Below, one piece after another: positions 34,403 through 48,042 of a DNA stretch of 62,120 nucleotides (position 1 is the first letter of the stretch; the number at the start of each line of letters is the position of its first letter). Origin of the DNA: Opitutaceae bacterium (GTDB lineage Bacteria; Verrucomicrobiota; Verrucomicrobiia; Opitutales; Opitutaceae); contig JAHFTI010000005.1 in NCBI GenBank assembly GCA_023265535.1, positions 1-62,120 on the forward strand, read 5' to 3'. A model generated the notes under the pieces. That model saw nothing but the letters and a program-made list of their open reading frames with translations, ran no database searches and was not told the DNA's origin. A program made the translations under genes and the position numbers.

Positions 34403-34780
34403 ATGTCCACGCAGAGCAACGCATGCACCAACCCCGCCACGTCGGGCCCTTCCGTCGACAAGCTCCGCCGTCTTCCCCCCTCGGCAACCGAGGATTTCCT
34501 GAGCTTCAAAGGCAAGGGTGATGAGGAGGCCCTCACGCGCCTGATCATTGCGGTGCTCACGGACCATTCGCCCGACAAGGCCAAGGCTGTCACCCAATGG
34601 GGCCCCGAGTTGCGCCTGATCGAGGACATCGGCTTTGATTCCCTGGCCATCGCCGAGACGGTCTTTTTCTTCGAGGACCTCTTTCAAATCAGCATTTCCA
34701 ACGAGGAAATCATGCAGGTGCGCACGCTTGGTGAGCTGCGCGCCTTTGTGAAGACCAAGGTGACGGCCCTCGCCTCCTGA
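34403..34780 (+). CDS. acyl carrier protein 1 (with ~40-aa N-terminal extension)
   Basis: Phosphopantetheine attachment motif IGFDSLAIAE. First gene of the coupled operon. Confidence 0.75.
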   Translation: MSTQSNACTNPATSGPSVDKLRRLPPSATEDFLSFKGKGDEEALTRLIIAVLTDHSPDKAKAVTQWGPELRLIEDIGFDSLAIAETVFFFEDLFQISISNEEIMQVRTLGELRAFVKTKVTALAS

Positions 34781-34817
34781 GCCTTCCGCAGGCCCGGGCC
34801 CCAAGCACCCCACATCC

Positions 34818-36092
34818 ATGCGACGCGCCGTCATCACCGGCATCGGTTTCATCAGCAGCATCGGCAACGATCGCGCCAGCGTGCTGGCCAGTCTCCGGGA
34901 GCTGAGGCACGGCTTCGAGCAGGTCACCTGGCTCGACAATCCGCGCGTGGCCGTGAAGGTGCTCGGCACCGTCAAGGGCTTCCAGGTCGCCTCCACCGAG
35001 TGGCGCGACTGGCGCTGGCCCGAGGGCTATTCCTTTGGCAGCGAGATCCTCCGTTCCCTCGCCCCGCACGGGCTTTACGCCCTGTGCGCCTGCGAGCAGG
35101 CCGTGGCCGATGCGGGTCTCAGGGCCGCGGATCTCGCCAATGTCGACACGGGGTTGTTCACCGCCTCCGCGGGTTCGCCTTTCCTGCTGCACCATCACCT
35201 CAAGACGCTCGACGTGGCACGCGGTGAACGCGGCAACCCCATGGGGGTCGTGAGTTCGATCAGCGGCACGCTCAACTTCAACCTGGCCACGCATTTTCAC
35301 ATCCAGGGCGCGGTCTGCGGCTTTGTCTCCGCCTGCGCCTCCTCGAGCCATGCGCTCGGCTATGCCCTCGACGAGATCCGTCTCGGGCGCCAGAAGCGCA
35401 TCCTGGTCGTGGGTGCCGAGGAACCGCACGCGGAGACGGTGCTGCCCTTCGCGGCCATGCGCGCCCTCTCGATCAATCCGGACCCGGGTTCCGCCTCGCG
35501 TCCCTTCGACCGCCGGCGTGACGGCTTTGTCGGCACGGGCGGTGCCGCCGCGCTCCTGGTGGAGGAGGAGTCCGAGGCCCTGGCGCGCGGTGCCACCATC
35601 TACGCCGAATTGGCGGGCTGGGGGCAGGCGGCGGACGGGCACAGCGTCGCCATGTCGCATCCCGAGGGGCGCGGCCTGATCGAGGCCATGAAACGCGCCC
35701 TGAAGGACGCCTCCGTGGAGTCGTCGGAGGTGGATTACATCAACGCCCACGCCACCTCCACTCCCGTCGGGGACAAGTCCGAGGCCTTTGCGCTCAGGAG
35801 CGTGTTTGGGGCGGTGCCGCGCCAGCCGCGCGTGAGCAGCACCAAGGCCCTCACCGGGCATGGCCTGTCGATGGCGGGTGCGCTCGAGACGGCGCTGTGC
35901 GCGCTAAGCATGAAGGAGGGCATCATCCCCGGCTGTGCCCACCTCCAGGAGCCGGATCCCGCCTGCGAGGGCCTGGACCTTCCGCGTGCGACCCTGGCCG
36001 AGCCCACCCGTGTCATGCTGAACAACAGCAGCGGGTTTGGTGGAAGCAATGTCTGCCTGGTCCTGAAGGCGGCGGCGGCTTCCCGCACCTGA
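34818..36092 (+). CDS. beta-ketoacyl-ACP synthase (FabF/FabB-like KS)
   Basis: Active-site Cys in SACASSSHALG, His in NAHATSTPVGD and KALTGHGLSMAG, and a C-terminal NSSGFGGSNVCLVL. Confidence 0.9.
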   Translation: MRRAVITGIGFISSIGNDRASVLASLRELRHGFEQVTWLDNPRVAVKVLGTVKGFQVASTEWRDWRWPEGYSFGSEILRSLAPHGLYALCACEQAVADAGLRAADLANVDTGLFTASAGSPFLLHHHLKTLDVARGERGNPMGVVSSISGTLNFNLATHFHIQGAVCGFVSACASSSHALGYALDEIRLGRQKRILVVGAEEPHAETVLPFAAMRALSINPDPGSASRPFDRRRDGFVGTGGAAALLVEEESEALARGATIYAELAGWGQAADGHSVAMSHPEGRGLIEAMKRALKDASVESSEVDYINAHATSTPVGDKSEAFALRSVFGAVPRQPRVSSTKALTGHGLSMAGALETALCALSMKEGIIPGCAHLQEPDPACEGLDLPRATLAEPTRVMLNNSSGFGGSNVCLVLKAAAASRT

Positions 36093-36182
36093 GCAGGAGC
36101 GGCCTTTCCGCCCTGCCATTCGCCTGCAGTGCGTGCTTGCGGAGCACCGTGCTTGTCTCCTGACTGTGCCCGTTTCCCCCGT

Positions 36183-36458
36183 ATGGCCGACCCTCTCTGC
36201 ACACGTCTCAAACACATCATCGTCCAGACCCTTCGTCTCGAGGATATCACCCCCGAGCAGATCAAGGACGACGAGCCGCTCATCGGCTCGGGCCTGGCCT
36301 TGGATTCGATCGATGCGTTGGAGCTCGTTGTCCAGCTGGAGAAGGAGTTCGGCATCAAGATCAGCAGCAGCGAGGAGTCCAAGCAGGCGCTTGCCAGCGT
36401 TTCCTCCCTTGCCGCCTTCATTCGTACGCGCGTGGAACCCTCCCGTCTTCCTTCCTGA
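36183..36458 (+). CDS. acyl carrier protein 2
   Basis: ATG at 36183 (MADPLCTRLKHIIV...). GLALDSIDALELV attachment motif. Confidence 0.8.
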   Translation: MADPLCTRLKHIIVQTLRLEDITPEQIKDDEPLIGSGLALDSIDALELVVQLEKEFGIKISSSEESKQALASVSSLAAFIRTRVEPSRLPS

Positions 36459-36476
36459 CCGTAACTTCCGCGGCGC

Positions 36477-37592
36477 ATGGCGGCCAAGCACCCCGAATCA
36501 GCCCGTCTGCTGGCCTACGATTGCCTCACCCCCTTTGGCGATGTGGCTGAGACCCATCGTGCCCTGTGCGAGGGGCGTCGCGCCCTGGCTCCCGTGCCCG
36601 TGCTCGGCTCGCGCGGAGGGGATCCGGTTCCGCTGGCGCTGATGCCCGGACGCGGCCTCGACGAGGCGCCGCTGCCCCATTGGCTCGGGGGTATCCGTGG
36701 CCTGGCGGCACGCATTCCGGGGGGCGACTGGGGTCGTCCTGGGCGTCCCATCGTGGTCACCAGCAGCAACTTTGGCGTGGGCAGCCTGTATTCCTACCGG
36801 CATGACGGCGGGGATCCGTCCCACCTCGGCCATGGGGCCCCCTTCTCCTCCGTGGAGTGGCTGCGGTGCGAACTGGGCTGGGGGGCGGACATCACGGTGT
36901 TCTCTCATGCCTGCGTGTCGGCGCACCTGGGCCTGGTGCATGCGGCCCGGCTGCTGGCGCGGGGCCTGGCTGACGAGGTGCTGGTGTTCAGCTACGATTT
37001 CCTGAGTCCCTTCGTGGCGGGCGGCTTTCACGCCCTCAAGATCCTGAACGGCCAGATGCCCGCGCCTTACCGCCGGCAGGAGACCGGTTCCATCGCGCTG
37101 GGCGACGGGGCGGCCTTCGCCGTGCTGACGCGCGACCGCGGCGAGCATCAGCTTGTGGCCCAGTCGCTTTTCAACGAGCTGCACCATTTCACCGCCAACA
37201 AGGCGGACGGTTCCGGCTTTGCCAGCGTGCTGGAGGGCCTGCGCGAGGCCGCGGGGGGGCGGCGCCTCTGGCTGAAGGGCCATGGCACGGGCACCCTGGA
37301 GGCGGGCCGCCTGGAGGCGGAGTCGCTCGGCCGCTGTTTCCCCGGATCGCCGCTGGTCGGCTGGAAGGGCAGCCTCGGGCACACGCTGGGAAGCTGCGGC
37401 CTGGTGGAACTGGCCATCGCCACGGAAGCGCTGCGCCGCGGGCAGGCTCCCGGGACGGTCGGCACCGAGGGCCCCTGCTTCATCGACGAGGTGGCCACGG
37501 CGCCCTTCGCCACGGGCGGCTTCGACGCGGTCCTGTGCAGCTCAAACGCCTTTGGCGGCGCCCACGCGGCGCTGCTCCTCGCCCATGCCTGA
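36477..37592 (+). CDS. second, divergent beta-ketoacyl synthase
   Basis: FSHACVSAHLG (Cys), KGHGTGT (His), GSLGHTLGSCG (His) and SSNAFGGAHAALLL. Shorter (371 aa) and more divergent than the first KS. Confidence 0.8.
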   Translation: MAAKHPESARLLAYDCLTPFGDVAETHRALCEGRRALAPVPVLGSRGGDPVPLALMPGRGLDEAPLPHWLGGIRGLAARIPGGDWGRPGRPIVVTSSNFGVGSLYSYRHDGGDPSHLGHGAPFSSVEWLRCELGWGADITVFSHACVSAHLGLVHAARLLARGLADEVLVFSYDFLSPFVAGGFHALKILNGQMPAPYRRQETGSIALGDGAAFAVLTRDRGEHQLVAQSLFNELHHFTANKADGSGFASVLEGLREAAGGRRLWLKGHGTGTLEAGRLEAESLGRCFPGSPLVGWKGSLGHTLGSCGLVELAIATEALRRGQAPGTVGTEGPCFIDEVATAPFATGGFDAVLCSSNAFGGAHAALLLAHA

Positions 37593-38238
37593 ACTGTATA
37601 TCCAGAATCTCAATACAGAGATGCCAGGCCTGGAGGAGCCCGCCGCCACGCGCGAGCGCCTGCGCGCCTGTTTCCCGGCCGGCGCGGCGCGGCGCATGAC
37701 GCAGCTCGGGATGCTGGTGGGGTCCGTGCTCGGGCCGCTCAACCCCGGCCCCGAGGATGTCCTGGTGTACGCCTCCGGCTTCGGCGAGAGCCGCTCCCTC
37801 GAGGCCTACCTGGACAGCTTCCCCACGGCCAGCCCGACCCTCTTCCAGACCTCGATCCATCCCAGCGGGGCGCAGCAGCTCATGATCGGCAGGCAGACGC
37901 CCCTGCGGCGCTTCTTTCCGCTTTCGGGCGGCAGGCAGCTCGTGGCGCAGGCCCTGGTGACGGCCCTGGTCCAGGAGGGGGGCCGCGTGCTCCTGTGCGG
38001 CGGCGAGGAGCGCGGCACCTGGCTGCGCGAGTGCGGGGTGGCGAGCGAGCATTCCCTGGCCTTTGCCCTGGAGCTGGCGCACGTGCGCAGCGAGGGCAGC
38101 CTGGGGCGCATTTCGCTGGAGCGCGGCGGCGGCGACGAGGGACTTTCGCTTCACGACTGGTGCGGGCTCCTGGCCCGGCGACAGCCCTTTTCGGGTGACG
38201 CCGGCGCAGGCTGGAGCCTGGCCTTGGAGTGGTTCTGA
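37585..38238 (+). CDS. beta-ketoacyl synthase N-terminal-like / chain-length-factor-like protein
   Basis: ATG at 37585 overlaps the upstream stop by 8 nt. At 217 aa, with no catalytic Cys/His triad evident, it resembles in size and position the short CLF-like proteins of aryl-polyene clusters. This assignment is inferred. Confidence 0.55.
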   Translation: MPELYIQNLNTEMPGLEEPAATRERLRACFPAGAARRMTQLGMLVGSVLGPLNPGPEDVLVYASGFGESRSLEAYLDSFPTASPTLFQTSIHPSGAQQLMIGRQTPLRRFFPLSGGRQLVAQALVTALVQEGGRVLLCGGEERGTWLRECGVASEHSLAFALELAHVRSEGSLGRISLERGGGDEGLSLHDWCGLLARRQPFSGDAGAGWSLALEWF

Positions 38239-39161
38239 TGACCGCGGAGACCGAGCATTCCGCAGCACGCAATCCCGGTCCCGACTGGGGGTATGCGTTC
38301 CTTCGCCTCGCGGACAAGGTGCTTCCCGAGTGGCTTTACAGGCCCCTGCGCGGCCTGGGCACGGCCATTGCGATGGCGGGCATGAGGGAGCAGCGCAGGC
38401 ATTCCCGCGACTACCTGCGGCTGATGCTGGGGCGTGAGCCCGGAGTGCGCGAGGTGTTCAGGCATTTTTTCGCCTTCGAGGAATCGCTGATGCTCAAGCT
38501 GCGCATCGCGAACGGGCGTCACATCCCCTGCGAGTACACCGAGGGGGCGCAGGATTTCCGGCGCTGGATGGAGGGGGGCGGGCCCGTTTTCCTGGGCACG
38601 ATGCATGTGGGTGTGTCGGACATGCTGGGATTCCAGATTGGCGGTCGTGGGGAGCATTCGGTCTACCTGGTGCGCCAGCAGGTCGGAAACTCGCACGACA
38701 CGGAGCGGCTGGAACGGCGCTTTGGCGGGCGCGTGAAGTTCATCTGGGTGAACCGCCCACAGGACATGATCTTTGCCCTCAAGGACGCCGCGGCCACCCC
38801 GCACGCCATTGCGATGCAATGCGACCGCGTGGAGCACAGTGCACGCGTGGAGGCTTTCCAGTTCCTAGGGGCGCGGAGGCTCTTCCCCTTCACGATCTAC
38901 CACCTTGCCCTCATCTTTCGACGCCCCGTGCTGCTGAGCGTGGGGGTGACGAAGGCGTGCGGCACCTCGGAGTTGCATGCGGCACCCGTCTTTGAGCTGC
39001 GCGAGGGGGAGCGGCGCGAGGAGGCCCTGGCGCGGGCGCGGGTGCATTTCCAGGGGTTCCTGACGCAGGTGGAGGTGTTGCTCAGGCGCGATCCCTATGT
39101 CTGGTATAATTTCACAGCCTTGAATCCCGTGGCCGGGCAGGACATGCCTTCAAGCCGATGA
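38238..39161 (+). CDS. LpxL/HtrB-like lipid acyltransferase
   Basis: ATG at 38238 overlaps the upstream TGA (TGATG). FLGTMHVGVSD contains the HX4D-type motif. Length and layout fit lauroyl/myristoyl acyltransferase family members found in aryl-polyene clusters. Confidence 0.65.
   Translation: MTAETEHSAARNPGPDWGYAFLRLADKVLPEWLYRPLRGLGTAIAMAGMREQRRHSRDYLRLMLGREPGVREVFRHFFAFEESLMLKLRIANGRHIPCEYTEGAQDFRRWMEGGGPVFLGTMHVGVSDMLGFQIGGRGEHSVYLVRQQVGNSHDTERLERRFGGRVKFIWVNRPQDMIFALKDAAATPHAIAMQCDRVEHSARVEAFQFLGARRLFPFTIYHLALIFRRPVLLSVGVTKACGTSELHAAPVFELREGERREEALARARVHFQGFLTQVEVLLRRDPYVWYNFTALNPVAGQDMPSSR
39102..39110 (+). promoter_or_regulatory. extended -10-like element TGGTATAAT inside the acyltransferase CDS
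   Basis: Read directly. It encodes W-Y-N using the rare TAT and AAT codons in a GC-rich gene, and lies ~50 nt upstream of the next start codon. No convincing -35. Confidence 0.2.
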
Positions 39162-39898
39162 GGCGCCTGTACCACTGCATCGCCTACTACCTCTCCTGGT
39201 TCGCCTTCGGGGCGGTGGGGCTGCTGCTGAACCTGTGTTGTGCCTGCCTCCTCCCCCTGCCCGGGCGGGAGCGGCGCGCTCCGGGGGTGAGGCGCATGAT
39301 CCGCAGGCTGTTCGACCTCTGGGTGCGCTGGTTTCACGCCTCGCGCGTCCTGGAGATCCGCTGGGTGGGCTTCAATCGCGAGCTGCCCGCGGGCACCGTC
39401 TACATCGCCAACCATCCCAGCCTGCTGGATGCCACCTTCCTGCTGGCGCGGCTCCCCGACGCCTTCTGCATCTTCAAGCCCGCGCTCATGCGCAATCCGG
39501 CGATCGGACCGGCGGCGATCATGGCGCGCTACGTGGCGGGCGACAACGCGGTAGACGTGGTGCGCGGTGCCGCAGAACGTGTCGCGGCGGGACAGTCCCT
39601 GCTGGTGTTTCCCGAGGGTACGCGCACCCTTCCTGGCACCGTGGTGGGCACGCTCAGGCCGGGCTTTGAGCTGATCGCACGCAGGGCGAAGGCGCCGGTG
39701 CAGCTGGTGATCATCCGTGCCAGCGAGGGCCTGGTGCCGCGCGGCCGCCACTGGCTGCTGCCTCCCACCGTGCTGCCCGCCTGGATCGAACTCACCCTGG
39801 ACAGGCGCTGGGAGGCGGGGGACCTGGCGGAGACGCGTGACAGCGTGCGGGAGGTCGAGGCGCGCATCCGCGAGGTGTTGGCGCCTGGACGGGCCTGA
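39158..39898 (+). CDS. 1-acyl-sn-glycerol-3-phosphate acyltransferase-like (PlsC/LPLAT family)
   Basis: ATGA overlap with the upstream gene. NHPSLLD (HX4D) and VFPEGTR motifs. Confidence 0.8.
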   Translation: MRRLYHCIAYYLSWFAFGAVGLLLNLCCACLLPLPGRERRAPGVRRMIRRLFDLWVRWFHASRVLEIRWVGFNRELPAGTVYIANHPSLLDATFLLARLPDAFCIFKPALMRNPAIGPAAIMARYVAGDNAVDVVRGAAERVAAGQSLLVFPEGTRTLPGTVVGTLRPGFELIARRAKAPVQLVIIRASEGLVPRGRHWLLPPTVLPAWIELTLDRRWEAGDLAETRDSVREVEARIREVLAPGRA

Positions 39899-40030
39899 GT
39901 GTGCGGGGGGGCAGGCCGGTGCGGCACTCCTGCCGGGGCCGGTTCAATGGGCGTGAAAATGGGGTTGCGCCAGAGGGGCTCTTTGGGCGCCATGCAGGGG
40001 CTGCACGCCCGGCGCGGCACGCCCCTCCCG

Positions 40031-41413
40031 ATGTCCCCGTCGTCCACCCAACTCGTCATCATTCCCAGCTACAACCCCGGCGACCGCCTCCTGCGGACCG
40101 TGCGCGAGGCGCTGGCCGTGTGGCAGCCCGTGTGGGTGATCGACGATGCGAGCACGGACGGCAGTCTCGCCGCGGTCGAGGAACTGGCGCGCAGCGAGCC
40201 CGGCCTGCGTGTCCTGAGGCGTGCGGCCAACGGGGGCAAGGGGGCGGCGGTGCTCGAGGCGGGAGAGGCGGCCCTGGAGGCGGGTTTCGAGGCGGCGCTG
40301 GTGATGGATGCGGACGGCCAGCATCCGGCCGGGCACATCATGCGTTTCATGGAGGCTGCGCGCGGCCTTCCGGGCGGCATGATCGTGGGGCTCCCCGAGT
40401 TTGGCGCCGAGGCCCCCAAGCTGCGCCTTTATGGTCGCAAGCTCAGCGTGTGGATGGTGTGGCTCGAGCTGGGCGGGGCGCGCGTGCGCGATCCGCTCTT
40501 CGGTTTCCGCGTTTACCCCCTGCGCCCGCTGGTGGCGGTGATGCGCGCAACGCGTTTCGGACGGCGCTATGATTTCGACCCGGAGTTCGCGGTCCGACTC
40601 GTGTGGGCGGGCGTGCCGACCCTGAATGTGCCCGCGCCCTGCCGCTACATCCCGCGCGAGGCGGGTGGCATCTCCCATTTCCATTACCTGAGGGACAACC
40701 TACGCATGATCTTCCTGCACACCCGACTGATCCTTGAGCTGCTGTTTGTGCGCTGGTGGAGGCGGGCGCCCTCCTTCCTTCTCGTGCTGCTCCTGGCCCT
40801 GGGGCTGCCCCTGGCGAAAGGCGCCGAGCTGCAGCAGGCGGGCCCCGAGATCGACAACCTGCGCGGACTGGTCGAATGGGCGCCCTTGCTCACGCGCCTG
40901 GCCACGCAGGGCGCCATCACCTCGACCTTCACCGAGCAGCGCTGGTTTCCCTTCAAGAAGACCCCCGCCAAGCTGCAGGGCGAGATGCGCTACTCGCCCG
41001 AGCTGGGCCTGAGCCTGCGCTACACCCAGCCCGACGAGCGCATGATGATCCTCGATGAGAAGGGGCTGCTGATGCGCGACGGCAAGGGCCGCCAGAAGGG
41101 CGCGCCCTCCGACCCGAAGAATCCCGACCTGGCCCACTCGCTGCTCTCCATCCTGCGTTTCGACGAGGAGAGCCTGCGGCGCGACTTCAGCATCCGCGGT
41201 GCGCGCGAGGGCGACGACTGGAGGCTCGACCTCATCCCGCGCGACAAGGAGCAGCTCAGGCGCATCGGCGTGGTGACCGTGTGGGGGGCGGGCGACCTGG
41301 TGAGGAAGATGGAGTTCCGCCGGGCGGCCAACCAGCGCATCGAGGTCAGTATCCAAACTTCAACTACAGTTGCGGGCTTCAGCGAGGCCGAGCGCCGCCG
41401 CTTCTTCCGATGA
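40031..41413 (+). CDS. family 2 glycosyltransferase fused through a TM helix to a LolA-like lipoprotein-carrier domain
   Basis: The GT2 part has VIIPSYNPG, VIDDASTDGS and VMDADGQH. A TM helix APSFLLVLLLALGLPLA follows. The C-terminal ~200 aa (FTEQRWFPFKKTPAKLQGEMRYSPELGLSLRY...) resemble the LolA-like proteins of aryl-polyene clusters. Alternative in-frame starts are at 39947 and 39899. Confidence 0.7.
   Translation: MSPSSTQLVIIPSYNPGDRLLRTVREALAVWQPVWVIDDASTDGSLAAVEELARSEPGLRVLRRAANGGKGAAVLEAGEAALEAGFEAALVMDADGQHPAGHIMRFMEAARGLPGGMIVGLPEFGAEAPKLRLYGRKLSVWMVWLELGGARVRDPLFGFRVYPLRPLVAVMRATRFGRRYDFDPEFAVRLVWAGVPTLNVPAPCRYIPREAGGISHFHYLRDNLRMIFLHTRLILELLFVRWWRRAPSFLLVLLLALGLPLAKGAELQQAGPEIDNLRGLVEWAPLLTRLATQGAITSTFTEQRWFPFKKTPAKLQGEMRYSPELGLSLRYTQPDERMMILDEKGLLMRDGKGRQKGAPSDPKNPDLAHSLLSILRFDEESLRRDFSIRGAREGDDWRLDLIPRDKEQLRRIGVVTVWGAGDLVRKMEFRRAANQRIEVSIQTSTTVAGFSEAERRRFFR
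41345..41376 (+). repeat. motif copy E: GTCAGTATCCAAACTTCAACTACAGTTGCGGG
   Basis: GTAT-N11-CTAC with TTCAACTACAG identical to copy D. It lies inside the GT2::LolA CDS and is read as IQTSTTV. Confidence 0.5.
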
Positions 41414-43794
41414 GTCCCGGCACCCTCGCCCTGCGTGCGCGCCTCCTGCTGGCCCTCTGGGTGGGCCTGTGCGCGGGCCTGCTCTGGTTCCTCGACCTGC
41501 CCGCACGCATCTCCACCGACGTGCTGGACCTGATCCCCGTCGGGGAGCGCCGGCCCGAGCTGGCCATGGTGCGCGGCATGGCCGCCGAGAAGCAGGGCCG
41601 CGTGGTGATGCTCGCGCTCGACCTTCCGGCGGGGCTGGACACCGGCCGCAGGGCGGTGGCGGGCGAGGCGGTGCGGGCGTCGCTCGAGGGGAGCGGTGCC
41701 TTCGAGGAGCTCCAGGCCATGGGTGGCACCGCCACGCGTGACGCCCTTGGCAGGGCCGTGCACCAGGGCAGGATGAACCTCCTTTTCCCGGGCTGGCTCG
41801 CACGCCAGCAGGCGGCCTGGCGCGACGAGGGGGGCGGGGCGGGCGGGCCCGATGCCGACTGGCTGGCGGCCCGGGCGGTGAGCGAGTTGGGCGCCTTTGT
41901 GGGCAGGCCCGAGGCGGTGGCCTTCCAGGATCTCCTGCCCTCCGACCCGCTGCTGCTGCTCCCGGGACTCGTGGACAAGCTCCAGGATGCGCAGCTCCAG
42001 CCGGGGAGCGCGGAGGGACCGGTGCTCCTCTGGGGCCTGATGCGCGGCAACCCGATGAACGAGGCCGACCAGGCCCGGCTGAGCGGGGCCGTGCAGCGGG
42101 CCGCCGGCGCCGCGTCGTCCCTCGAGCCGGGCAGCGGACTGCGCTGGACGGCGGTGGCGCGCTTTGCGGAGCTGAGCCGCGCGCGTATCCAGTCGGAGAT
42201 GACACGCCTCAACCTGCTTTCCCTGGCTGCGGTCTTCGGCATGGCCGCCCTCTGCCTGAGCCGCGTGTTCCGTTCGCTGCACCTGGTGCCGCCCGTGCTG
42301 ATCAGCACGCTGACCGGCTGGTGCGTGACCCTGCTGGTCTTCCCGCGCGTGCATGTGCTCGTCTTCGTGGTGGGCTCGCTGCTGGCGGGCGTCGCGGTGG
42401 ACTACGGCTTCTACCTTTTCATGCAGCCGCCCGCGTATCCGGAGGAGCCCTACACCCGCCGCGCCGGGCGCCTGCTGCGGCCCCTGCTGGCGAGCGCGCT
42501 CACGACGATCCTCGGCTTTTCGCTGCTGTTCTTCTCCGAGCTGCCGCTCATCCGCCAGCTGGGCGTGTTTGTGAGCGCGGGCCTGCTGGCCGCCCTGGGT
42601 GCGGCCCTGCTCTGGTTCGCCCAGATCAGGAACGCCCACCTGCCCGCCCGCCCCTTCGCGGCGGCGACGGTGCCCGCGGGGAGGCCCGGACGGGTCGTGG
42701 CCTGGGTCCTGATCGCGGCCTGTGCGTTGGCCGCCTGCGTCGGGCCCTGGCGCCTTGAGTGGCGTGATGACATCCGCACGCTGGAGGTGCCCTCACCGGA
42801 GCTGCGCGAGAACGATGCCGCCCTCCGCAGGCTCTTCGGCGAGGAGCCAGGGCGTGCCCTGTACCTCTCGGTCGGTGCGGATGCCGCCCAGGCGCGCGAG
42901 GCCTGGGGGCGGCTCGACGCCTGGCATGCCGGGAGGCACCCGGGCAAGGGCCTGCTCTCGCTGGCGCTGCTCATGCCCTCACGCTCCGAATGGGAGGGAC
43001 TTTCAGCAGCCAGGCCCTCCCTGCAGGATTTTCCCGCCAGCCTGAGGCGGGAGTTGGAGGCCGGCGGCTTTGAGGCGTCCGGCTTTGAGCCCTTCTTCAG
43101 GGAATGGGGGCGCTGGCGTGCCGAGCCGCCCCCCAGCCCCGACAGCCTGGCGGAGGGCTTCCAGGCGCAGCTGCGAGGGCCCGTGGCCCTGCTGATGTCG
43201 GTGCGGGCGGGGCAGGCCTGGTTCGCCTCCGTTTCAGGCGCCCCGGTCTCCCCCGGCGACCAGGTTCCCGAAGGCACCTTCCTGGCCAGCCAGCTGGCAA
43301 CGCTCAACCGCCTCTTCTCCGACTATCGCCAGTCGGCGCTGCGCCTGAGCAGCATCGGGCTCGCCCTGGTGGGACTGAGCGTGTTCGTGCTCTACGGCCT
43401 GCGCCGGGGCGTATTTGTTTTCATGATACCCAGTGGGGCCTGCCTCGGCGCCTTCGGCATCCTGGGCCTCTGCGGCCAGACCCTCAACCTCTTCCACCTT
43501 CTCGGGGCTTTCCTGGGGGTGTGCCTCAGCCACAACTACGCCATCTTCTCGATTGAGAACCGCCTGTGCGGCAACGGTGTGCCGCCCTCGATACGCATGT
43601 CGGCGCTGAGCACCTTCGCCTCCTTCGCGGTCCTGGGCATCAGCAGCATCCCGGTGGTGGCCGCCCTGGGGACCATGGTGGCCCTGATCGTGCTCCTGGC
43701 GCTGCTGTTCGTCGAACTCGGCGCAATTCTCTCCCGTTCCCGCACCGGAGCTGCTTGCGCAACGGCCGCGGGCGACTTGAATGATGGGGCCTGA
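41410..43794 (+). CDS. MMPL/RND-like exporter
   Basis: ATGA overlap with the upstream gene. 794 aa with two blocks of hydrophobic helices separated by soluble loops. Same position as the MMPL exporter of aryl-polyene/xanthomonadin clusters. Confidence 0.75.
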   Translation: MSPGTLALRARLLLALWVGLCAGLLWFLDLPARISTDVLDLIPVGERRPELAMVRGMAAEKQGRVVMLALDLPAGLDTGRRAVAGEAVRASLEGSGAFEELQAMGGTATRDALGRAVHQGRMNLLFPGWLARQQAAWRDEGGGAGGPDADWLAARAVSELGAFVGRPEAVAFQDLLPSDPLLLLPGLVDKLQDAQLQPGSAEGPVLLWGLMRGNPMNEADQARLSGAVQRAAGAASSLEPGSGLRWTAVARFAELSRARIQSEMTRLNLLSLAAVFGMAALCLSRVFRSLHLVPPVLISTLTGWCVTLLVFPRVHVLVFVVGSLLAGVAVDYGFYLFMQPPAYPEEPYTRRAGRLLRPLLASALTTILGFSLLFFSELPLIRQLGVFVSAGLLAALGAALLWFAQIRNAHLPARPFAAATVPAGRPGRVVAWVLIAACALAACVGPWRLEWRDDIRTLEVPSPELRENDAALRRLFGEEPGRALYLSVGADAAQAREAWGRLDAWHAGRHPGKGLLSLALLMPSRSEWEGLSAARPSLQDFPASLRRELEAGGFEASGFEPFFREWGRWRAEPPPSPDSLAEGFQAQLRGPVALLMSVRAGQAWFASVSGAPVSPGDQVPEGTFLASQLATLNRLFSDYRQSALRLSSIGLALVGLSVFVLYGLRRGVFVFMIPSGACLGAFGILGLCGQTLNLFHLLGAFLGVCLSHNYAIFSIENRLCGNGVPPSIRMSALSTFASFAVLGISSIPVVAALGTMVALIVLLALLFVELGAILSRSRTGAACATAAGDLNDGA

Positions 43795-43813
43795 GCGTCC
43801 CTCACAGACAACG

Positions 43814-45226
43814 ATGATTTCAGACCACACCAGCACCGGTTCGCGCGTCCTGCTCGCCAACCTCAACCGCTACGACCAGCCCTATCCGGTCTATCCGTTG
43901 TCCATGGCCTACCTGGATTCCGCCCTGCGCGAGGCGGGCCACACGCCGCTGTGCTGGGACGCCAAGATGGCCACCGAGACGCTCGAGGAGGCGGTGCTGC
44001 GCTTCAAGCCCGACTACATCGGCGTGTCGGTGCGCAACGTGGACAATGTCCAGAGCCACAACCCGAAGAGCTTCATCCATGAGCTGGTTGCCTGCTGCCG
44101 CAGCCTGCGCTCGATCACGAAGGCCACGCTGGTGCTAGGCGGCAGCGGCTTCTCGGTTTTCCCCCGCGAGCTGCTGGCCGTGGCGGATGCCGACTTCGGC
44201 GTGGCGGGCGAGGGCGAGCGGGCGCTGGTGGAGCTGATCGCCGCGCGCAGCCGGGGCGCGGACCATCGTGGCATCTTCGGCCTGGTGTGGAAGGAGGCCG
44301 ACGGTCGTGTGGTCGCGGCGCCGCGCACGCCGAACGGTGAGCTTTTCACGGTCGAGCCCTTCCATGACCCGGAACTGCTCAAGGCCTACGTGGCCCAGGG
44401 TTCCATCCCCGGCGTGCAGACCCAGCGCGGCTGCCCGCTGCGCTGCTGTTACTGCACCTATCCGCTGATCGAGGGAAAGAAGAGCCGGTTCCGCTCCGGG
44501 CCCCAGGTGGTGGAGGAGATGCGCCGCCTGATCTCGCTCGGCGTGCACTACACCTTCATTGTCGACTCCGTCTTCAACACGAGCCGCGAGCACACCGCCC
44601 AGGTCTGCGAGGCGCTGGCGAGGGCCGGCCTCGACATGCAGTGGGGCTGCTTCCTGCGTCCGCGCAACCTGAGCAAGGACCTGCTGGAGCTCATGAAGCG
44701 CGCCGGCATGAAGCACATCGAGTTCGGCTCCGACAGCCTTTCCGACCCCGCACTGAAGCATTACGGCAAGAGTTTCACCTGGGAGGAGATCCGCGCCTCC
44801 AGCGCCTACGCGCACGAGCTCGGCCTGCACTACAGCCATTTCCTGATCTTCGGCGGCCCCGGAGAGACGGAGGCGACGGTCGAGGAGACCCTGCTGCATT
44901 CGACGCAGCTGCCCGGCGCCTTCTTCTTTGGCACGATCGGCATGCGCATCTATCCGGAGACGCCGCTATGGCGGCATTGCAATCCCGAGGCGCGCGGTGA
45001 GAAGCCCGCCGACTACCTGCTCGAGCCGCGCTTTTACATCGAGGCGCCGCTCACCACGCAGAGCCTGCTCGCGCGCATCACCACGCACCGCGAGCGGCAC
45101 CACAACTGGATCCTGGGCGACCCGCCGCCCGAGTTCAACGAGACCATGGACAAGCTGCGCCGCCGCGGCGTGCGTGGGCCCATGTGGGAATACGTCGAGC
45201 TCCTGCAACGCCTGCAGCCTGCATGA
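43814..45226 (+). CDS. B12-binding domain / radical SAM protein
   Basis: N-terminal Rossmann-like B12-binding region (RVLLANLN...YIGVSVRN). CX3CX2C cluster motif GCPLRCCYCTYP. An alternative start at 43781 overlaps the upstream gene. Confidence 0.85.
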   Translation: MISDHTSTGSRVLLANLNRYDQPYPVYPLSMAYLDSALREAGHTPLCWDAKMATETLEEAVLRFKPDYIGVSVRNVDNVQSHNPKSFIHELVACCRSLRSITKATLVLGGSGFSVFPRELLAVADADFGVAGEGERALVELIAARSRGADHRGIFGLVWKEADGRVVAAPRTPNGELFTVEPFHDPELLKAYVAQGSIPGVQTQRGCPLRCCYCTYPLIEGKKSRFRSGPQVVEEMRRLISLGVHYTFIVDSVFNTSREHTAQVCEALARAGLDMQWGCFLRPRNLSKDLLELMKRAGMKHIEFGSDSLSDPALKHYGKSFTWEEIRASSAYAHELGLHYSHFLIFGGPGETEATVEETLLHSTQLPGAFFFGTIGMRIYPETPLWRHCNPEARGEKPADYLLEPRFYIEAPLTTQSLLARITTHRERHHNWILGDPPPEFNETMDKLRRRGVRGPMWEYVELLQRLQPA

Positions 45227-46563
45227 GTGCGCCGGGGGCCACGCTTTCCGAACGTTGGCGCGACACCCTGCGCCGCGGACCCGGCGAGACCGCACTGATC
45301 GAGGCCGCGGAAGGCCGCGTGTTCACGCGCGCCCAGCTTCAGGCTGGTGCCGACGCCTGGCTGGCCGGCCCCGCCGCGGGGGCGGTGCTTGCGCGCCGGC
45401 GCGTCGGCCTGGCGGTGCCCAACGGCGCGGCATGGCTGGAGGTGTTCCTCGCGCTGCAGCAGGCCGGTGCGGTGCCGGTGCTGCTGGATGCCTCGGAGGG
45501 CGCGGACCGCCTTCGTGGGCAGGCGGCGGGACTGGGTGCGGCGCTGCTCTGGGCAGAGGGTGGGCTTCAGCCCACGGGAGGACGCGCGCGCGCCTGCCCC
45601 GCGGACCACTGCCTCGTCAAGGTCACCAGCGGCAGCACGGGGGCGCCGAAGGGGCTGCCCTTCACGCACGCCCAGGCCGCCGCGGACGGGCTCCAGGTCT
45701 GCTCCAGCATGGGTATCCGGGAAACGGATACGAACTTCGCGCTCATCCCGCTCGGCCACTCCTACGGCCTGGGCAACCTCGTGCTCCCGCTGCTGCTGCA
45801 GGGCAGCCCCGTGCTGTGCGGCTCGATGCCGCTGCCCCACTGCATCGCCGCCGACTGCACCCGCTGGCGCCCCTCGCTCTTTCCCGCCGTGCCCACCCTC
45901 CTCCGCGCCCTGCTGCGCTCGGGGCTGCCCGGCGACGCGCTCGCCCCCCTGCGCGGCGTGATCTCCGCGGGCTCGCCCCTGGACCCGGCGGAGGCCGCCG
46001 CCTTTGTATCACGATTCTCGATACGCGTGCACTCCTTCTACGGCTCCAGCGAGACGGGCGGCATCAGCTACGACCGCAGCGGCGAGGCCGCCGTGACGGG
46101 GCGCAGCGTGGGGACGCCGCTGGACGGCGTGACCCTGCGTTTCGCCCGCGGCGGCCGCTTCCATGTCTCCGGCGCCGCCGTGCTGGGCCGGGGCAGTTTC
46201 TCCCCCTCGGACCGCGGCGAGCTCACCCCGGAGGGGGAGCTCAGGCTTGTCGGCAGGGTGGGGCGCCTCTTCAAGATCGGCGGCCGCCGGCTCGACCTTG
46301 CGGGGCTCGAGGCCGAGATCGGCGCGGTGCTTTCGGCGCGCGGTGTCGTGGTGGCGGCCCATCCCGAGCGGCCCGAGAGCCTGGCGGCCCTCGTGGCCTG
46401 CGACCATGGGGTGCAGGAGGCCCGGGCGCTGCTCAGTGCCCGCCTGGCGGCCTGGAAGGTGCCTGCGCGGGTGCGCGTGGTGCAGGAATTGCCCTCCACG
46501 CAGCGCGGAAAGACGGATCGCCGCAGGGCCGTGGAGCTGCTGGCGGGTGTGGCAGCCTCCTGA
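45223..46563 (+). CDS. AMP-dependent synthetase/ligase (probable aryl- or acyl-acid:ACP ligase)
   Basis: ATGA overlap with the radical SAM gene. Adenylation cores VTSGSTGAPKG, FYGSSETGG and a C-terminal QRGKTDRR. Confidence 0.8.
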   Translation: MSAPGATLSERWRDTLRRGPGETALIEAAEGRVFTRAQLQAGADAWLAGPAAGAVLARRRVGLAVPNGAAWLEVFLALQQAGAVPVLLDASEGADRLRGQAAGLGAALLWAEGGLQPTGGRARACPADHCLVKVTSGSTGAPKGLPFTHAQAAADGLQVCSSMGIRETDTNFALIPLGHSYGLGNLVLPLLLQGSPVLCGSMPLPHCIAADCTRWRPSLFPAVPTLLRALLRSGLPGDALAPLRGVISAGSPLDPAEAAAFVSRFSIRVHSFYGSSETGGISYDRSGEAAVTGRSVGTPLDGVTLRFARGGRFHVSGAAVLGRGSFSPSDRGELTPEGELRLVGRVGRLFKIGGRRLDLAGLEAEIGAVLSARGVVVAAHPERPESLAALVACDHGVQEARALLSARLAAWKVPARVRVVQELPSTQRGKTDRRRAVELLAGVAAS

Positions 46564-46615
46564 GCGGAAGGGCGGAGTCTCGCCGTGGCCGGGTGACCCC
46601 GGGCCCGGCCGCTGC

Positions 46616-47554
46616 TCAGCCCTGTGCGGTGGTCCGCACGCCGAAGGCGCTGAGCTCGATCTCTACGTTGAGATCGGCCCGGCAGACGTCGGAACGCAGG
46701 TAGCTCACCTTGTCCGTCGGCTGCAGGAGGCGCTCGAAAAGCTGGCGGGCCACGAAGTCCAGGTCCCCGGCGTGGCGCAGGTACACCTTCAGGTGGCGCT
46801 GGCTGCCGTCGCCCGCGGCGAGGGAGCGACCGATGCCGCAGTGGACGCCGAGTGCCTGCATGTTCTCGATCGTGCAGTCGAGCTGCTCGGCGGTGCGTCC
46901 GGGGGCGATGCTGCGGTGGCCCCGGATGGCGGCCGTGCCCGAGATGAAGGCGTCGCACAGGCCTTCCGCCGTGTGGACCAGGGTGGCGCGGGCGAAACTG
47001 GGGGGACGAGGACCGTAGTCGGCCGGATATTCGTAGGCGGGGGTCTGCAGCGGGTTCTCGAAGTGCCGCGACCTGGCGGTGGTGGCGGCGAACATGACGA
47101 CGAGGTTGTCCCCGTCGGTGCCCACCGCGGAGGCCGAGGGCAGGCGATGCTCAAAGCCGCGTCCATAGGCCTCCTCAAAGGCGAGGGCCCGCCCCAGGCA
47201 GAAGGACTTGTAGTTCTCGCGTCCCTCCGCGTCCGTCTGGTTGATGCCCGGGACGTAGTTCCAGACGCGACACAGGCCCTGGCCGGCAATCGCGAGCAGT
47301 TCCCTGTAGAGGGAACGCGCTGGCTCTACGCAGTCGCCAGCGCAGCACGCCGAGGCCACGCCCAGGGTGTAGCCGCCCTGTTGGTAAAGGCTGAAGGCTC
47401 CCGTGGCGGACGCGAGCCGCGCCTGGGGGAAAAGCCGTTCGACATCCTCGCCTCCCAGGACGGGCACGCCGGTGGCGATGCGCTCATCCAGGAGGACGAG
47501 CTGGCTTGGCTCGGTGACTGTGCCGGCGGGGGCGGAGGACATCTGACGTCTCAA
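46616..47554 (-). CDS. chorismatase-like protein (FkbO/Hyg5/XanB2 family, RidA-like C-terminal domain)
   Basis: CRVWNYVPGIN and FISGTAAIRGH segments and the overall ~310-aa length match what I recall of chorismate-hydrolysing XanB2/Hyg5-type enzymes. Not verified by alignment. Confidence 0.6.
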   Translation of the reverse strand: MRRQMSSAPAGTVTEPSQLVLLDERIATGVPVLGGEDVERLFPQARLASATGAFSLYQQGGYTLGVASACCAGDCVEPARSLYRELLAIAGQGLCRVWNYVPGINQTDAEGRENYKSFCLGRALAFEEAYGRGFEHRLPSASAVGTDGDNLVVMFAATTARSRHFENPLQTPAYEYPADYGPRPPSFARATLVHTAEGLCDAFISGTAAIRGHRSIAPGRTAEQLDCTIENMQALGVHCGIGRSLAAGDGSQRHLKVYLRHAGDLDFVARQLFERLLQPTDKVSYLRSDVCRADLNVEIELSAFGVRTTAQG

Positions 47555-47558: not shown

Positions 47559-47963
47559 CTATTTCAGCATCGCCACCTCGTTGAGGAAGCGGGAGAGGTC
47601 GGCCTTGATGTACTTGATCCAGCTCGCGGGAAGCTCGGGCTTCTTGCGTTCGCCCGTGTTCCTATTGATGTCGTAGCCCCAGCAGCTGATCTCGATGGTG
47701 CGGCCGGTGATCACAAAGGTGATCTGCGCCTCGTTCGTGTGGCGCCTGAGGTAGGCGACGACCCTGTCCGCGGATTCCTCCCTGATGGTCCACTTGCGGT
47801 TGTTCAGCGCACGCATGATGGCCTTCTGAGCGTCCTCGGTGGTGATCTTTTCCGAGGGGATCTCAATGTTGCCAATCGGCAGGCTGACCTCGTCTGCCGC
47901 GAGGCAGACGTGTGCGAGGAAAAGTGCTGAGGACAGCAGCAGGAAACGGAGGAGGAATTTCAT
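47559..47963 (-). CDS. small secreted protein, unknown function
   Basis: ATG at 47963 (MKFLLRFLLLSSALFLAHVCLAADE signal peptide). 134 aa. Ends 4 nt before the chorismatase-like gene starts. GC content is visibly lower than its neighbours. Confidence 0.5.
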   Translation of the reverse strand: MKFLLRFLLLSSALFLAHVCLAADEVSLPIGNIEIPSEKITTEDAQKAIMRALNNRKWTIREESADRVVAYLRRHTNEAQITFVITGRTIEISCWGYDINRNTGERKKPELPASWIKYIKADLSRFLNEVAMLK

Positions 47964-48042
47964 GGCGGGGAGCTGGTGGGGAGGTGTGCACCCCATCTTT
48001 ACTGCAGCGCCGGTGGGCATTGCAAGTACGACTCAAGGGGCT

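Follow-up and report, generated by a model that had tools for sequence, protein, structure and literature searches.

What kind of lipid would be made by a gene cluster that resembles an aryl polyene (APE) cluster, and yet holds no reductive genes and carries a B12-radical SAM enzyme? The question is raised by the window, the whole stretch of DNA analysed, which is an entire 62-kb contig; searches of host DNA cover that contig alone. The host belongs to the Opitutaceae (Verrucomicrobia), in agreement with the PVC/Verrucomicrobia-like origin supposed in an earlier, sequence-only reading. Reading product, priming and location alike from homology, we consider it likely that the cluster encodes a pathway of the APE-lipid type that is aryl-primed and has its own export machinery, an Opitutaceae form of the aryl-polyene-lipid (APEL) pathway, and that its product is probably related to the aryl polyene lipids of the outer membrane.

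Organization and borders of the cluster

Eleven co-directional genes occupy positions 34403-46563 of the + strand and a chorismatase gene on the - strand converges on their end, all of them where the sequence-only reading had placed them (Table 1). The eleven genes are tightly coupled translationally: as read from the sequence, the KS2 and chain-length factor (CLF) genes overlap by 8 nt (ATGCCTGA, 37585-37592), a TGATG junction is located at 38236-38240, ATGA overlaps are present at 39158, 41410 and 45223, and the next open reading frame starts directly after the PlsC-like stop at 39898. The ligase and chorismatase genes end at 46563 and 46616 respectively, with a 52-nt gap between them. The span originally drawn around the cluster, 34403-47554, contains the eleven genes and the chorismatase but leaves out an ApeA-like gene that lies ahead of the chorismatase gene and forms one operon with it, so that the cluster reaches past 47554. 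The ApeA-like protein is 26.8% identical to E. coli ApeA (E 6e-4) with a visible signal peptide, and homologues are positioned ahead of the chorismatase in related loci L050 (pairwise E 4e-11), L003, L016 and L088. The DedA/VTT gene lies directly upstream on the same strand, with synteny only in L003, and is also present in L082. For the 87-aa protein encoded first in the - strand operon, there is no family match and no homologue in the related loci. Two + strand open reading frames (33632-34360 and 47839-49089) were rejected as antisense artefacts.

Table 1. Features of the cluster and its right flank.
Feature	Coordinates	Strand	Evidence and remarks
ACP1, acyl carrier protein	34403..34780	+	PF00550 23.2 bits; ~60-aa N-terminal extension
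KS1, FabB-like ketosynthase	34818..36092	+	Full KS N and C domains; Cys-His-His (alignment); ApeR-type slot
ACP2, ApeE-type acyl carrier protein	36129..36458, likely start 36180	+	NF006617/PRK09184 67.5 bits
KS2, ApeO-like ketosynthase	36477..37592	+	Cys-His-His triad intact (alignment)
Truncated chain-length factor, ApeC-like	37585..38238	+	PF13723 25.2 bits; 8-nt overlap with KS2
LPLAT-superfamily acyltransferase, LpxM/PatA fold	38229..39161, likely start 38238	+	Corresponds to ApeJ C-terminal half
PlsC-type acyltransferase, ApeD-like	39158..39898	+	PF01553 43.8 bits; ApeD 36.5% identity, E 3e-23
GT2 glycosyltransferase fused in frame to LolA-like protein	39899..41413, likely start 40031	+	PF00535 62.4 bits; PF19574 LolA_3 34.5 bits
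ApeM-like RND/MMPL-type exporter	41410..43794	+	MMPL 20.3 bits; HAE3 6.7e-10; ApeM E 3e-20 over 659 aa
Cobalamin-binding radical SAM enzyme	43814..45226, likely start 43814	+	B12-binding and Radical_SAM domains; CX3CX2C motif
ApeH-like adenylating ligase, predicted aryl-acid:ACP ligase	45223..46563	+	AMP-binding 129 bits; ApeH E 9e-9
Chorismatase, FkbO/Hyg5 superfamily	46616..47554	-	PF21168 76 bits; N-domain present; predicted hydroxybenzoate-forming
ApeA-like small secreted protein or lipoprotein (S153)	47559..48020	-	Directly upstream of chorismatase, same operon
DedA/VTT-domain membrane protein	48043..48837	-	PF09335 23.2 bits, below cut-off 33.9; cluster membership possible, unproven
87-aa predicted membrane protein	48839..49102	-	First gene of - strand operon; high GC3; cluster membership unproven

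Correspondence to the aryl polyene machinery

With the characterised ape cluster of E. coli CFT073 as reference, there are counterparts of ApeE, ApeO, ApeC, ApeD, ApeL, ApeM, ApeH and ApeA, and ApeJ is split over two genes, whereas the methyltransferase ApeB has no counterpart. The ape-type parts list proposed from the sequence is thus borne out by homologues, and the underlying domain calls (two PP-binding acyl carrier proteins, two ketosynthases, PlsC-type, GT2 plus LolA_3, MMPL-like, B12-binding plus Radical_SAM, AMP-binding, and an FkbO/Hyg5 N-domain) were all recovered. The roles of ApeD, ApeJ, ApeL and ApeM have been assigned from the published APEL structure and genetics.

ACP2 contains the motif LALDSIDALEL and is 47.5% identical to E. 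coli ApeE (E 8e-23). KS2 has ApeO as its top E. coli match (77 bits, versus 63 bits for FabF) and matches PDB 7f28_B and 6qsp_A. The short protein that had been called CLF-like is ApeC-like by its PF13723 score and by profile matches to the ApeC structures (6qsp_B, 6e-8; 7f28_A, 7e-6), and matches E. coli ApeC itself with E 3e-4. KS1 scores below the curated cut-offs for both FabF (331 versus 494 bits) and FabB (310 versus 630 bits); it is 39% identical to E. coli FabB, 34% to FabF and 31% to ApeR, and scores higher with FabB/FabF than with ApeR, which is itself described as FabB-like. For the ape-type reading, the higher scores of KS1 with FabB and FabF count against, and the FabB-like character that it shares with ApeR counts in favour. 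ACP1, with the serine motif DSL (within IGFDSLAIAE), is weakly similar to AcpP and ApeF, with AcpP at least as close as ApeF, and its adjacency to KS1 is kept in many loci, including the distant L050.

The LPLAT-superfamily acyltransferase has no Pfam or NCBIfam match, and its homologues are named 'predicted LPLAT superfamily acyltransferase' by JGI. An AlphaFold (AF2) model (pLDDT 83.5) matches LpxM (5knk, Foldseek E 3.7e-10) and also PatA, an HX4D motif is present with H123 and D128 invariant, and hhalign pairs the protein with ApeJ residues 258-548 (probability 94%, E 1e-7), all of which support its previous description as LpxL-like. The N-terminal half of ApeJ (residues 1-235) is 36.6% identical to the GT2 part of the GT2-LolA fusion, and the LolA-like part is related to ApeL (E 6.5e-5). 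An in-frame GTG at 40748 is positioned just ahead of the LolA signal peptide within this open reading frame; the fusion is shared with the nearest relative, L090, and the two parts are separate genes in ~30 other loci.

Evidence for aryl priming and the proposed pathway

The chorismatase matches the structures of Hyg5 (5ag3, 136 bits) and FkbO (135 bits), and scores 185 bits against TIGR04444, under the cut-off of 325. It has only two of the three CH-II signature glycines, and carries both Hyg5-type residues (signature from PMC7170507) expected for hydroxybenzoate formation, the predicted activity. These residues, a Gly (SGT) and a Cys (DxCR), are kept together with the catalytic Glu in 9/9 cluster-linked homologues. 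With all three residues and the N-domain in place, the protein is not a plain RidA enzyme, an identity set beforehand as a point to check. The top PDB matches of the ligase are benzoate-, feruloyl- and 4-chlorobenzoate-CoA ligases, in keeping with the aryl-acid ligase role previously predicted for it, with a low likeness to ApeH and aryl ligases (25% identity, about 65 bits).

In NCBIfam, the ligase matches a long-chain fatty-acid-CoA ligase subfamily best, at a score far under the cut-off. This would fit a different scheme in which the ligase activates a fatty acid and the operon makes an envelope lipid without an aryl primer, for instance by furnishing a glycolipid or lipid-A-like molecule with a special acyl chain; the chorismatase would then have a separate task, such as quinone or cofactor supply. 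The FabB-like character of KS1 agrees with this, as do the presence of lpxB a few kb upstream in L087 and the generic nature, as lipid-assembly and transport parts, of the LpxM-fold and PlsC acyltransferases, the GT2, the LolA-like protein and the RND pump. We nonetheless regard it as very improbable, given that the ligase is structurally closest to aryl-acid ligases, that ACP2 resembles the aryl-chain carrier ApeE, and that the distant L050 cluster contains an FAD halogenase, also a feature of xanthomonadin and arcuflavin clusters. Moreover, at least ten loci keep chorismatase, ligase and cluster next to one another, and three different arrangements occur among them. This linkage is kept in about ten Verrucomicrobial genomes with varying gene order, the ligase and chorismatase being downstream in the window, L003, L011, L018 and L089, upstream in L087 and L088, and internal in L050.

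In the aryl-primed pathway that we propose, the chorismatase would convert chorismate to 3- and/or 4-hydroxybenzoate, which would be adenylated by the ApeH-like ligase and loaded onto ACP2. Malonyl extension would be performed by the ApeO/ApeC-like KS2-CLF heterodimer and by KS1 (with ACP1). At the inner membrane, the ApeD-like acyltransferase, the GT2 and the LpxM-like acyltransferase would then link the acyl chain or chains to a glyco-glycerolipid anchor, and the ApeM-like pump, the LolA-like carrier and the ApeA-like secreted protein would deliver the lipid to the outer membrane.

Missing reductive genes and the radical SAM enzyme

In all ape, xanthomonadin and flexirubin clusters that have been characterised, ketoreductase (KR), dehydratase (DH) and thioesterase (TE) genes belong to the core, but none is present in the whole window, or within ~10 kb of the cluster in >20 Opitutaceae loci and in L050, which counts against the proposed pathway. 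Both this absence and the radical SAM gene, pointed out in the sequence-only reading, are real and conserved across the lineage, and because of them the product is probably a related lipid. One guess, on which we are evenly divided, is that beta-keto reduction and dehydration are provided by enzymes encoded elsewhere (a second locus or FAS II) to give a polyene-like or partly reduced chain; alternatively, these steps may be absent altogether.

The same machinery and priming could also yield a product that is not a polyene. One candidate is a short beta-keto chain; another is an omega-(hydroxyphenyl) fatty acyl lipid, which would arise if FAS II (FabG, FabZ, FabI) worked on the FAS-like KS1/ACP1 pair and reduced the chain fully. 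Such a product might then be methylated or cross-linked by the radical SAM enzyme. The KR and DH genes are missing from all of these loci even though the ligase and chorismatase linkage survives rearrangement, and the likeness of KS1 to FabB and of ACP1 to AcpP points the same way. In addition, other Verrucomicrobial clusters with a radical SAM enzyme of this family (TIGR04072) keep KR and DH beside that gene, so the loss here looks like a real pathway change. The FAS FabG of Acinetobacter baumannii, unable to replace ApeQ in vitro, cannot serve the APE carrier protein. However, every KS-CLF system of the ApeO/ApeC type that has been characterised yields conjugated polyenes, the parts of a pigment cluster may lie at unlinked loci, as they do in Azoarcus, and the absence of KR and DH in the host applies within the 62-kb contig only. 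We therefore consider a non-polyene product possible but rather doubtful.

The radical SAM enzyme, a 470-aa protein in the database, belongs to NCBIfam TIGR04072 ("rSAM_ladder_B12"; 379.5 bits, just above the cut-off of 360), a 'ladderane-type' membership missed in the sequence-only reading. Its closest solved structure is TsrM (6wte, E 1.4e-31) and its second-best family is BzaD (161 bits); both of these closest characterised relatives are methylases of aromatic sp2 carbons. The cluster itself has no class I methyltransferase, and a guess, offered tentatively and at a little below even confidence, is that the enzyme tailors the product, most likely by C-methylation of the aryl ring in place of the missing ApeB. 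Homologues with 42-61% identity are also encoded at loci that have no PKS context, and so the substrate need not be an aryl chain.

The family name raises the further prospect of a ladderane-type cluster, in which a fatty acyl chain would be the substrate of a key, skeleton-forming reaction of the radical SAM enzyme and the aryl genes would play an incidental part. The candidate ladderane cluster of anammox bacteria likewise puts a B12-radical SAM enzyme together with an ACP and a KS/CLF-like FabF pair. 'Ladderane' clusters are also, according to surveys, well represented in Verrucomicrobia, and in Verrucomicrobiota and Fibrobacterota, phyla that are also among the radical SAM loci that we retrieved. 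But the TIGR04072 score is barely over the cut-off, nine proteins are Ape homologues, the CLF is of the truncated ApeC type and not a full-length inactive FabF, neither an amxFabZ-like dehydratase nor a phytoene-desaturase-like gene was found in the window, and ladderanes are known only from anammox Planctomycetota, all of which makes this explanation extremely improbable. Our cluster is probably what the surveys list as Verrucomicrobial "ladderane"/arylpolyene clusters. The earlier description of it as unlike the characterised clusters holds for its radical SAM gene and its lack of reductive genes, although the cluster is less singular than implied: the type is widespread in the Opitutaceae.

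Layout of the cluster and its surroundings

The sequence-only reading had described eleven co-directional genes facing a convergent chorismatase-like gene, and both are present, the former on the + strand and the latter on the - strand, with the two convergent stops (of the ligase and chorismatase genes) 52 nt apart. The junctions that it had listed were also recovered: ATGCCTGA was read from the sequence at the claimed overlap, the 217-aa CLF overlapping KS2 by 8 nt, and the TGATG junction and the ATGA overlaps are all present. When the parts list was checked with Pfam and NCBIfam, two ACPs, two ketosynthases, a PlsC-type acyltransferase, GT2 and LolA_3 in a single ORF, an MMPL/HAE3-like transporter, B12-binding and Radical_SAM domains, an AMP-binding domain and an FkbO/Hyg5 N-domain were confirmed. 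Homologue lengths and alignments led us to move the starts of the ACP2, acyltransferase, GT2 and radical SAM genes. Two + strand ORFs were rejected as antisense artefacts by codon-position GC.

Positions of features in the window and in related loci
Feature	Position	Strand	Remark
High-G+C stretch	5760-9500		G+C peak of the window (0.74)
Low-G+C stretch	10636-25689		G+C 0.60-0.63, against 0.65-0.74 elsewhere
argG	19983
rnpA-yidC pair	30089-32864
Rejected ORF	33632-34360	+	antisense artefact
Terminator-like hairpin	33663-33684		strong; closes the YebC gene preceding the operon
MarC gene	33716-34291	-	divergent; between YebC gene and operon
Eleven-gene operon	34403-46563	+
ACP2 start	36180	+	revised
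ATGCCTGA	37585-37592		overlap
TGATG	38236-38240		junction
Acyltransferase start	38238	+	revised
ATGA	39158, 41410, 45223		overlaps
GT2::LolA fusion	39899-41413	+
GT2 start	40031	+	revised
In-frame GTG	40748	+	GT2/LolA junction
Radical SAM gene start	43814	+	revised
Chorismatase gene	46616-47554	-
ApeA-like gene	47559-48020	-
Rejected ORF	47839-49089	+	antisense artefact
DedA/VTT-domain and 87-aa membrane protein genes	48043-49102	-
L001 (Opitutus sp. ER46), second B12-radical SAM gene	2203-3654
L050, halogenase gene	680-2416		opens the cluster
L050, ApeA-like gene (in a unit with the chorismatase gene)	9441-9881
L050, DUF481 protein gene	16912-17967		closes the cluster
L078, cluster of another type	5377-15784
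L083 (= L026), radical SAM orthologue	10001-12275
L088, ApeA-like gene (in a unit with the chorismatase gene)	33-476
L088, second B12-radical SAM gene	2814-4376
L089, G-to-T nonsense change	6472
L090, GT2::LolA fusion	6214-7596

Within the fusion ORF the GT2 C-terminus is joined in frame directly to the LolA signal peptide (…LILELLFVRWWRRAPSFLLVLLL…), and an in-frame GTG lies at the junction. GT2 and LolA-like genes are separate in about 30 other loci. A fusion confined to the window and caused by an assembly error was ruled out, since the identical in-frame junction occurs in an independent assembly, L090, of the nearest relative, whose radical SAM protein is 87% identical. In L089, a second assembly of the L090 sequence, a single G-to-T nonsense change falls inside GT2.

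The rnpA-yidC pair lies about 1.5 kb upstream of the cluster and is followed by a YebC/TACO1 gene; a replication origin is typically near such a pair. MarC was rejected as a cluster member, its synteny being limited to the closest relatives. On the other side, the - strand operon whose last gene is that of the chorismatase starts with genes for two membrane proteins, one with a DedA/VTT domain and one of 87 aa. Only the closest relatives (locus L003) have the VTT gene in a syntenic position, and it is also present in L082; a role of its product in lipid flipping is conceivable. No Rfam RNA, cobalamin riboswitch included, was detected across the whole window, and a sigma-70 promoter scan returned nothing useful. 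Further upstream, the low-G+C stretch encodes polysaccharide-use functions (GH88-like, heparinase II/III-like, two large TonB-dependent receptors, an MFS transporter) and sits among arginine-biosynthesis genes, with argJ, argB, argD and OTCase genes upstream as well as argG; it may be an inserted island. In the high-G+C stretch are genes for a DUF3142 protein and for a 772-aa protein without a Pfam match.

Homology to aryl polyene and xanthomonadin clusters

The proteins were compared by blastp with those of the CHARACTERISED cluster, the E. coli CFT073 ape cluster (L084, apeA-R), and with E. coli fabB, fabF and acpP products. ACP2 is 47.5% identical to ApeE, the PlsC-like protein 36.5% identical to ApeD and the GT2 36.6% identical to ApeJ residues 1-235. 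The transporter matches ApeM (E 3e-20), the ligase ApeH (E 9e-9), the LolA-like part ApeL (E 6.5e-5; LolA_3 34.5 bits), and a 153-aa secreted protein, whose gene lies immediately upstream of the chorismatase gene, ApeA (E 6e-4). The ApeA-like gene and the chorismatase gene form a conserved two-gene unit, seen also in L050 and L088. In L053 and L056, both from Opitutales, an ApeA-like gene adjoins the radical SAM gene. ACP1 has a PP-binding domain and the serine motif, and its similarity to ApeF is no greater than that to AcpP.

ApeO is the top E. coli match of KS2, which keeps the Cys-His-His triad when aligned to FabF and matches 7f28_B and 6qsp_A. The 217-aa CLF matches ApeC by blastp, with a PF13723 score at its cut-off, and the ApeC-type assignment is independently backed by a profile of 13 orthologues, which matches only the two solved ApeC chains, 6qsp_B (6e-8) and 7f28_A (7e-6). 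KS1 shows 39% identity to FabB, 34% to FabF and 31% to ApeR by blastp and its catalytic residues are present; it falls below both the NCBI FabF and FabB cut-offs. ApeR itself is described in the literature as a FabB-like KS. The 307-310-aa acyltransferase gave no Pfam, NCBIfam or PDB-sequence match, a profile search against PDB sequences included. Its AlphaFold model (pLDDT 83.5) matches LpxM and PatA (Foldseek, E 4e-10 to 3e-8), its HX4D motif is invariant, and its profile aligns to ApeJ residues 258-548 (hhalign, probability 94%). Because the GT2 corresponds to residues 1-235 and this LpxM-like acyltransferase to residues 258-548, ApeJ is split into two genes here.

Of the proteins of the E. 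coli and Xenorhabdus doucetiae ape clusters, ApeA, C, D, E, H, J, L, M and O thus have counterparts by homology in the window, where a FabB-like second KS (KS1) may fill the ApeR role. Like those clusters, the window has a truncated CLF overlapping a KS, two ACPs, two LPLAT-type acyltransferases with a GT2, and a LolA/RND export module. It differs from them in the split ApeJ, with the ApeD homologue between the halves, in the fusion of GT2 to the LolA-like protein, in its added B12-radical SAM enzyme and Verrucomicrobiota host, and in having its own chorismatase; for the E. coli ape cluster, 4-hydroxybenzoate is predicted to come from the ubiquinone pathway. The celluxanthene arylpolyene cluster of anaerobes was set aside as a closer relative, having no radical SAM enzyme or chorismatase.

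The chorismatase is not a plain RidA protein, its PF21168 N-domain scoring 76.1 bits (cut-off 27) and the catalytic Glu being present. Its TIGR04444 score (184.9 bits) is under the cut-off of 325, and it matches the structures of Hyg5 (136 bits) and FkbO (135 bits) equally. The signature of CH-II, the 3-hydroxybenzoate-forming class of Hyg5, is Gly, Gly, Cys (PMC7170507). In an alignment of nine cluster-linked Verrucomicrobial homologues with Hyg5 and FkbO, all nine keep the catalytic Glu and have Hyg5's Gly in SGT and its Cys in DxCR (each Ala in FkbO); the first CH-II Gly is Ala in all nine, so that two of the three signature residues are present. We read the chorismatase as a putative hydroxybenzoate-forming enzyme, of either the XanB2 or the Hyg5 subtype. 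The best solved relatives of the ligase, at low scores, are benzoate-, feruloyl-, 4-chlorobenzoate- and anthranilate-CoA ligases, and specificity for aryl acids is suggested. A chorismatase and an AMP-ligase are also found in the xanthomonadin and arcuflavin pathways of Xanthomonas and Azoarcus, in which the XanB2/ArcB chorismatase and XanA2/ArcT ligase supply and load hydroxybenzoate, and the clusters further share GT, acyltransferase, LolA and exporter genes and a ligase gene adjoining the chorismatase gene. The window differs from them in having a radical SAM enzyme and in lacking KR, DH and halogenase genes; halogenases belong to xanthomonadin-type clusters, and among the related loci one was found only in the distant L050.

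Homology and synteny together support the earlier proposal of an aryl-primed APE/xanthomonadin-like lipid cluster. Following the published APEL model for the roles, all steps of the pathway are predicted from these two lines of evidence. Chorismate would be converted to hydroxybenzoate, which the ligase would load on ACP2 for extension by KS2/CLF and KS1, while ACP1 possibly carries a second chain, as proposed for ApeF. The PlsC-like enzyme would acylate a lysoglycerolipid, the GT2 would add a sugar, and the LpxM-like enzyme would esterify the aryl chain to that sugar; the lipid would then reach the outer membrane via the RND pump, the LolA-like carrier and the ApeA-like protein. APE lipids, which protect against oxidative stress, are regarded as coming from one of the most widespread families of bacterial gene clusters.

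Conservation in Verrucomicrobiota and the missing reductive genes

Opitutaceae, including Opitutus sp. ER46 and Nibricoccus, provide the nearest homologues of the radical SAM protein. A scan for radical SAM loci, with one genome per species, gave more than 583 loci, and the window proteins were compared with the best 80 by tblastn. These 80 are mostly from Opitutaceae and other Verrucomicrobiota; weaker relatives belong to Fibrobacterota, Nitrospirota, Acidobacteriota and Gammaproteobacteria. Among the loci compared, those of about 20 Opitutaceae genomes have the block ACP2-KS2-CLF-acyltransferase-PlsC-GT2-LolA-exporter-radical SAM, and many of these also have ACP1-KS1; the cluster type is widespread in Opitutaceae, cultured members included. 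All parts are also present, in another order, in the distant Verrucomicrobial locus L050 (47% radical SAM identity). The ligase and chorismatase genes are downstream in the window and in L003, L011, L018 and L089/L090, upstream in Nibricoccus (L087) and L088, and in mid-cluster in L050, and a linkage kept through such rearrangement is a good indication of a shared function. In L050 (55% GC, to which the GC3 filter for gene finding is unsuited) the cluster opens with a FAD-dependent halogenase of the tryptophan-halogenase family, which suggests a halogenated aryl head group in this lineage, and it closes with a DUF481 outer-membrane-type protein.

The reductive genes had been called missing, and we found no SDR/KR in the window either with Pfam or with ApeQ and FabG as tblastn queries. 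Searches with Pfam and with the E. coli proteins by tblastn found no KR, DH, TE, class I methyltransferase, ApeG or ApeN in the 62-kb window, which is thus unlike the ape clusters with their ApeQ (KR), ApeI/P (DH), ApeK (TE), ApeB (class I methyltransferase), ApeG and ApeN. Within the flanks examined, KR, DH and the others are likewise missing from every Opitutaceae-type locus and from L050. No hot-dog/FabA-like protein was found in the window or related Opitutaceae loci, a search that small divergent proteins could escape in tblastn, and every conserved ORF in the operon interior has an assignment. FabG-like KR and FabA-like DH genes do accompany a radical SAM gene of the same family in two other groups of Verrucomicrobial loci, the Akkermansiaceae type (L040-L042) and the L078 type, of which the latter has a second B12-radical SAM gene too. 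L078 encodes LolA, a FabA-like DH, a ligase, GT2, a TIGR04072-like radical SAM enzyme, a second B12-radical SAM enzyme with DUF4070, a KS, a KS-like protein without a Pfam match and a FabG-like KR; similar loci are L049, L064, L069, L073-L075, L079 and L080. By gene content, the L078 type is a predicted APE-like cluster whose reductive genes are intact and which encodes two radical SAM enzymes.

The FAS II enzymes may carry out the reduction in Opitutaceae, but in A. baumannii the FAS FabG is no substitute for ApeQ in vitro, which makes the absence of reductive genes a real puzzle. The reductive genes may instead be in an unlinked locus, as reported for Azoarcus, or the chain may be other than a polyene. 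The locus represents a conserved Verrucomicrobial APE derivative which has its own predicted hydroxybenzoate supply, has lost the polyene-making enzymes and has gained a cobalamin radical SAM enzyme, and its interest lies in the conservation of both this loss and this gain.

The radical SAM enzyme and the ladderane label

The radical SAM enzyme matches TIGR04072 over its full length (379.5 bits, cut-off 360) and carries a CX3CX2C motif. NCBIfam names this family "rSAM_ladder_B12", "lipid biosynthesis B12-binding/radical SAM protein", and a literature search on TIGR04072 found no paper. The second-best family is the BzaD model (160.9 bits, cut-off 450), and the nearest solved structure is TsrM (112.8 bits, TsrM family cut-off 500). 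TsrM and BzaD both depend on cobalamin and methylate aromatic carbons, the former as a tryptophan 2-C-methyltransferase and the latter in benzimidazole C-methylation. These nearest characterised relatives share the B12 domain and the CX3CX2C core with the window enzyme, although similarity is low and far under the family cut-offs, and homologues of the window enzyme also occur in non-aryl contexts.

Since these relatives methylate aromatic carbons and ApeB, which normally methylates APE head groups, is absent here, our preferred guess is that the enzyme may C-methylate the aryl ring. The guess is weak, because there are PKS-free orthologues, unrelated neighbourhoods in Nitrospirota and Dokdonella, and a family name that points to anammox bacteria. 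Orthologues of 57-61% identity lie away from any PKS genes, and in Nitrospirota and Dokdonella the homologues, at 42-47% identity, have unrelated neighbours, so that the link of the TIGR04072 family to APE-like clusters is specific to Verrucomicrobiota and not a general one. One Opitutaceae orthologue (L083, 60% identity) has no PKS/lipid cluster and is directly followed by a class I SAM methyltransferase gene, and no cluster genes surround the radical SAM gene in the Opitutaceae loci L023, L027, L032 and L035. A bolder proposal, which we consider improbable, is that the enzyme builds the skeleton on an ACP-bound aryl-polyketide/lipid, for example by C-C coupling, cyclisation or chain methylation, replacing the KR/DH-dependent polyene route. 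The outer-membrane aryl lipids of Opitutaceae would in that case form a new class, and a culturable carrier such as Opitutus sp. ER46 could offer the first experimental handle on the ladderane-named radical SAM family.

The candidate ladderane cluster of anammox bacteria comprises amxACP, amxFabZ, FabF2/FabFmut, a PDH-like gene and a B12-radical SAM gene, whose product is a candidate for cyclobutane formation. That cluster and the window both encode a dedicated ACP, a KS paired with a CLF-like protein, and a radical SAM enzyme of the cobalamin type; the window enzyme is in TIGR04072, and the anammox enzyme (Kuste2803) would belong there by the name of the model. Neither an amxFabZ-type dehydratase nor a phytoene-desaturase-like domain was found in the window, and a 217-aa ApeC-type CLF stands in place of the anammox heterodimer of full-length FabF and inactive FabF, and we therefore place the cluster outside the anammox cluster family. 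Genes for a predicted aryl starter and for Ape-type anchoring and export, and a host that is not an anammox bacterium, further set the window apart.

Clusters that antiSMASH labels "ladderane" are well represented in Verrucomicrobia in one survey and are also reported by survey from Verrucomicrobiota, Fibrobacterota and other phyla, and "aryl polyene-ladderane" hybrids are listed in the literature. These surveyed taxa overlap with those in which the scan found the radical SAM family. The present cluster type is probably what the surveys count as Verrucomicrobial "ladderane", and such clusters would then be APE-lipid-like envelope pathways, not ladderane pathways. Because cultured Opitutaceae carry the cluster, the function of TIGR04072, also invoked for ladderane biosynthesis, could be tested in a tractable organism. 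The version in ER46 is without GT2 and ACP1/KS1 in the stretch seen. There, as in L088, a second, divergent B12-radical SAM gene lies beside the ligase gene, the second enzyme in such Opitutaceae clusters having about 25% identity to the first.
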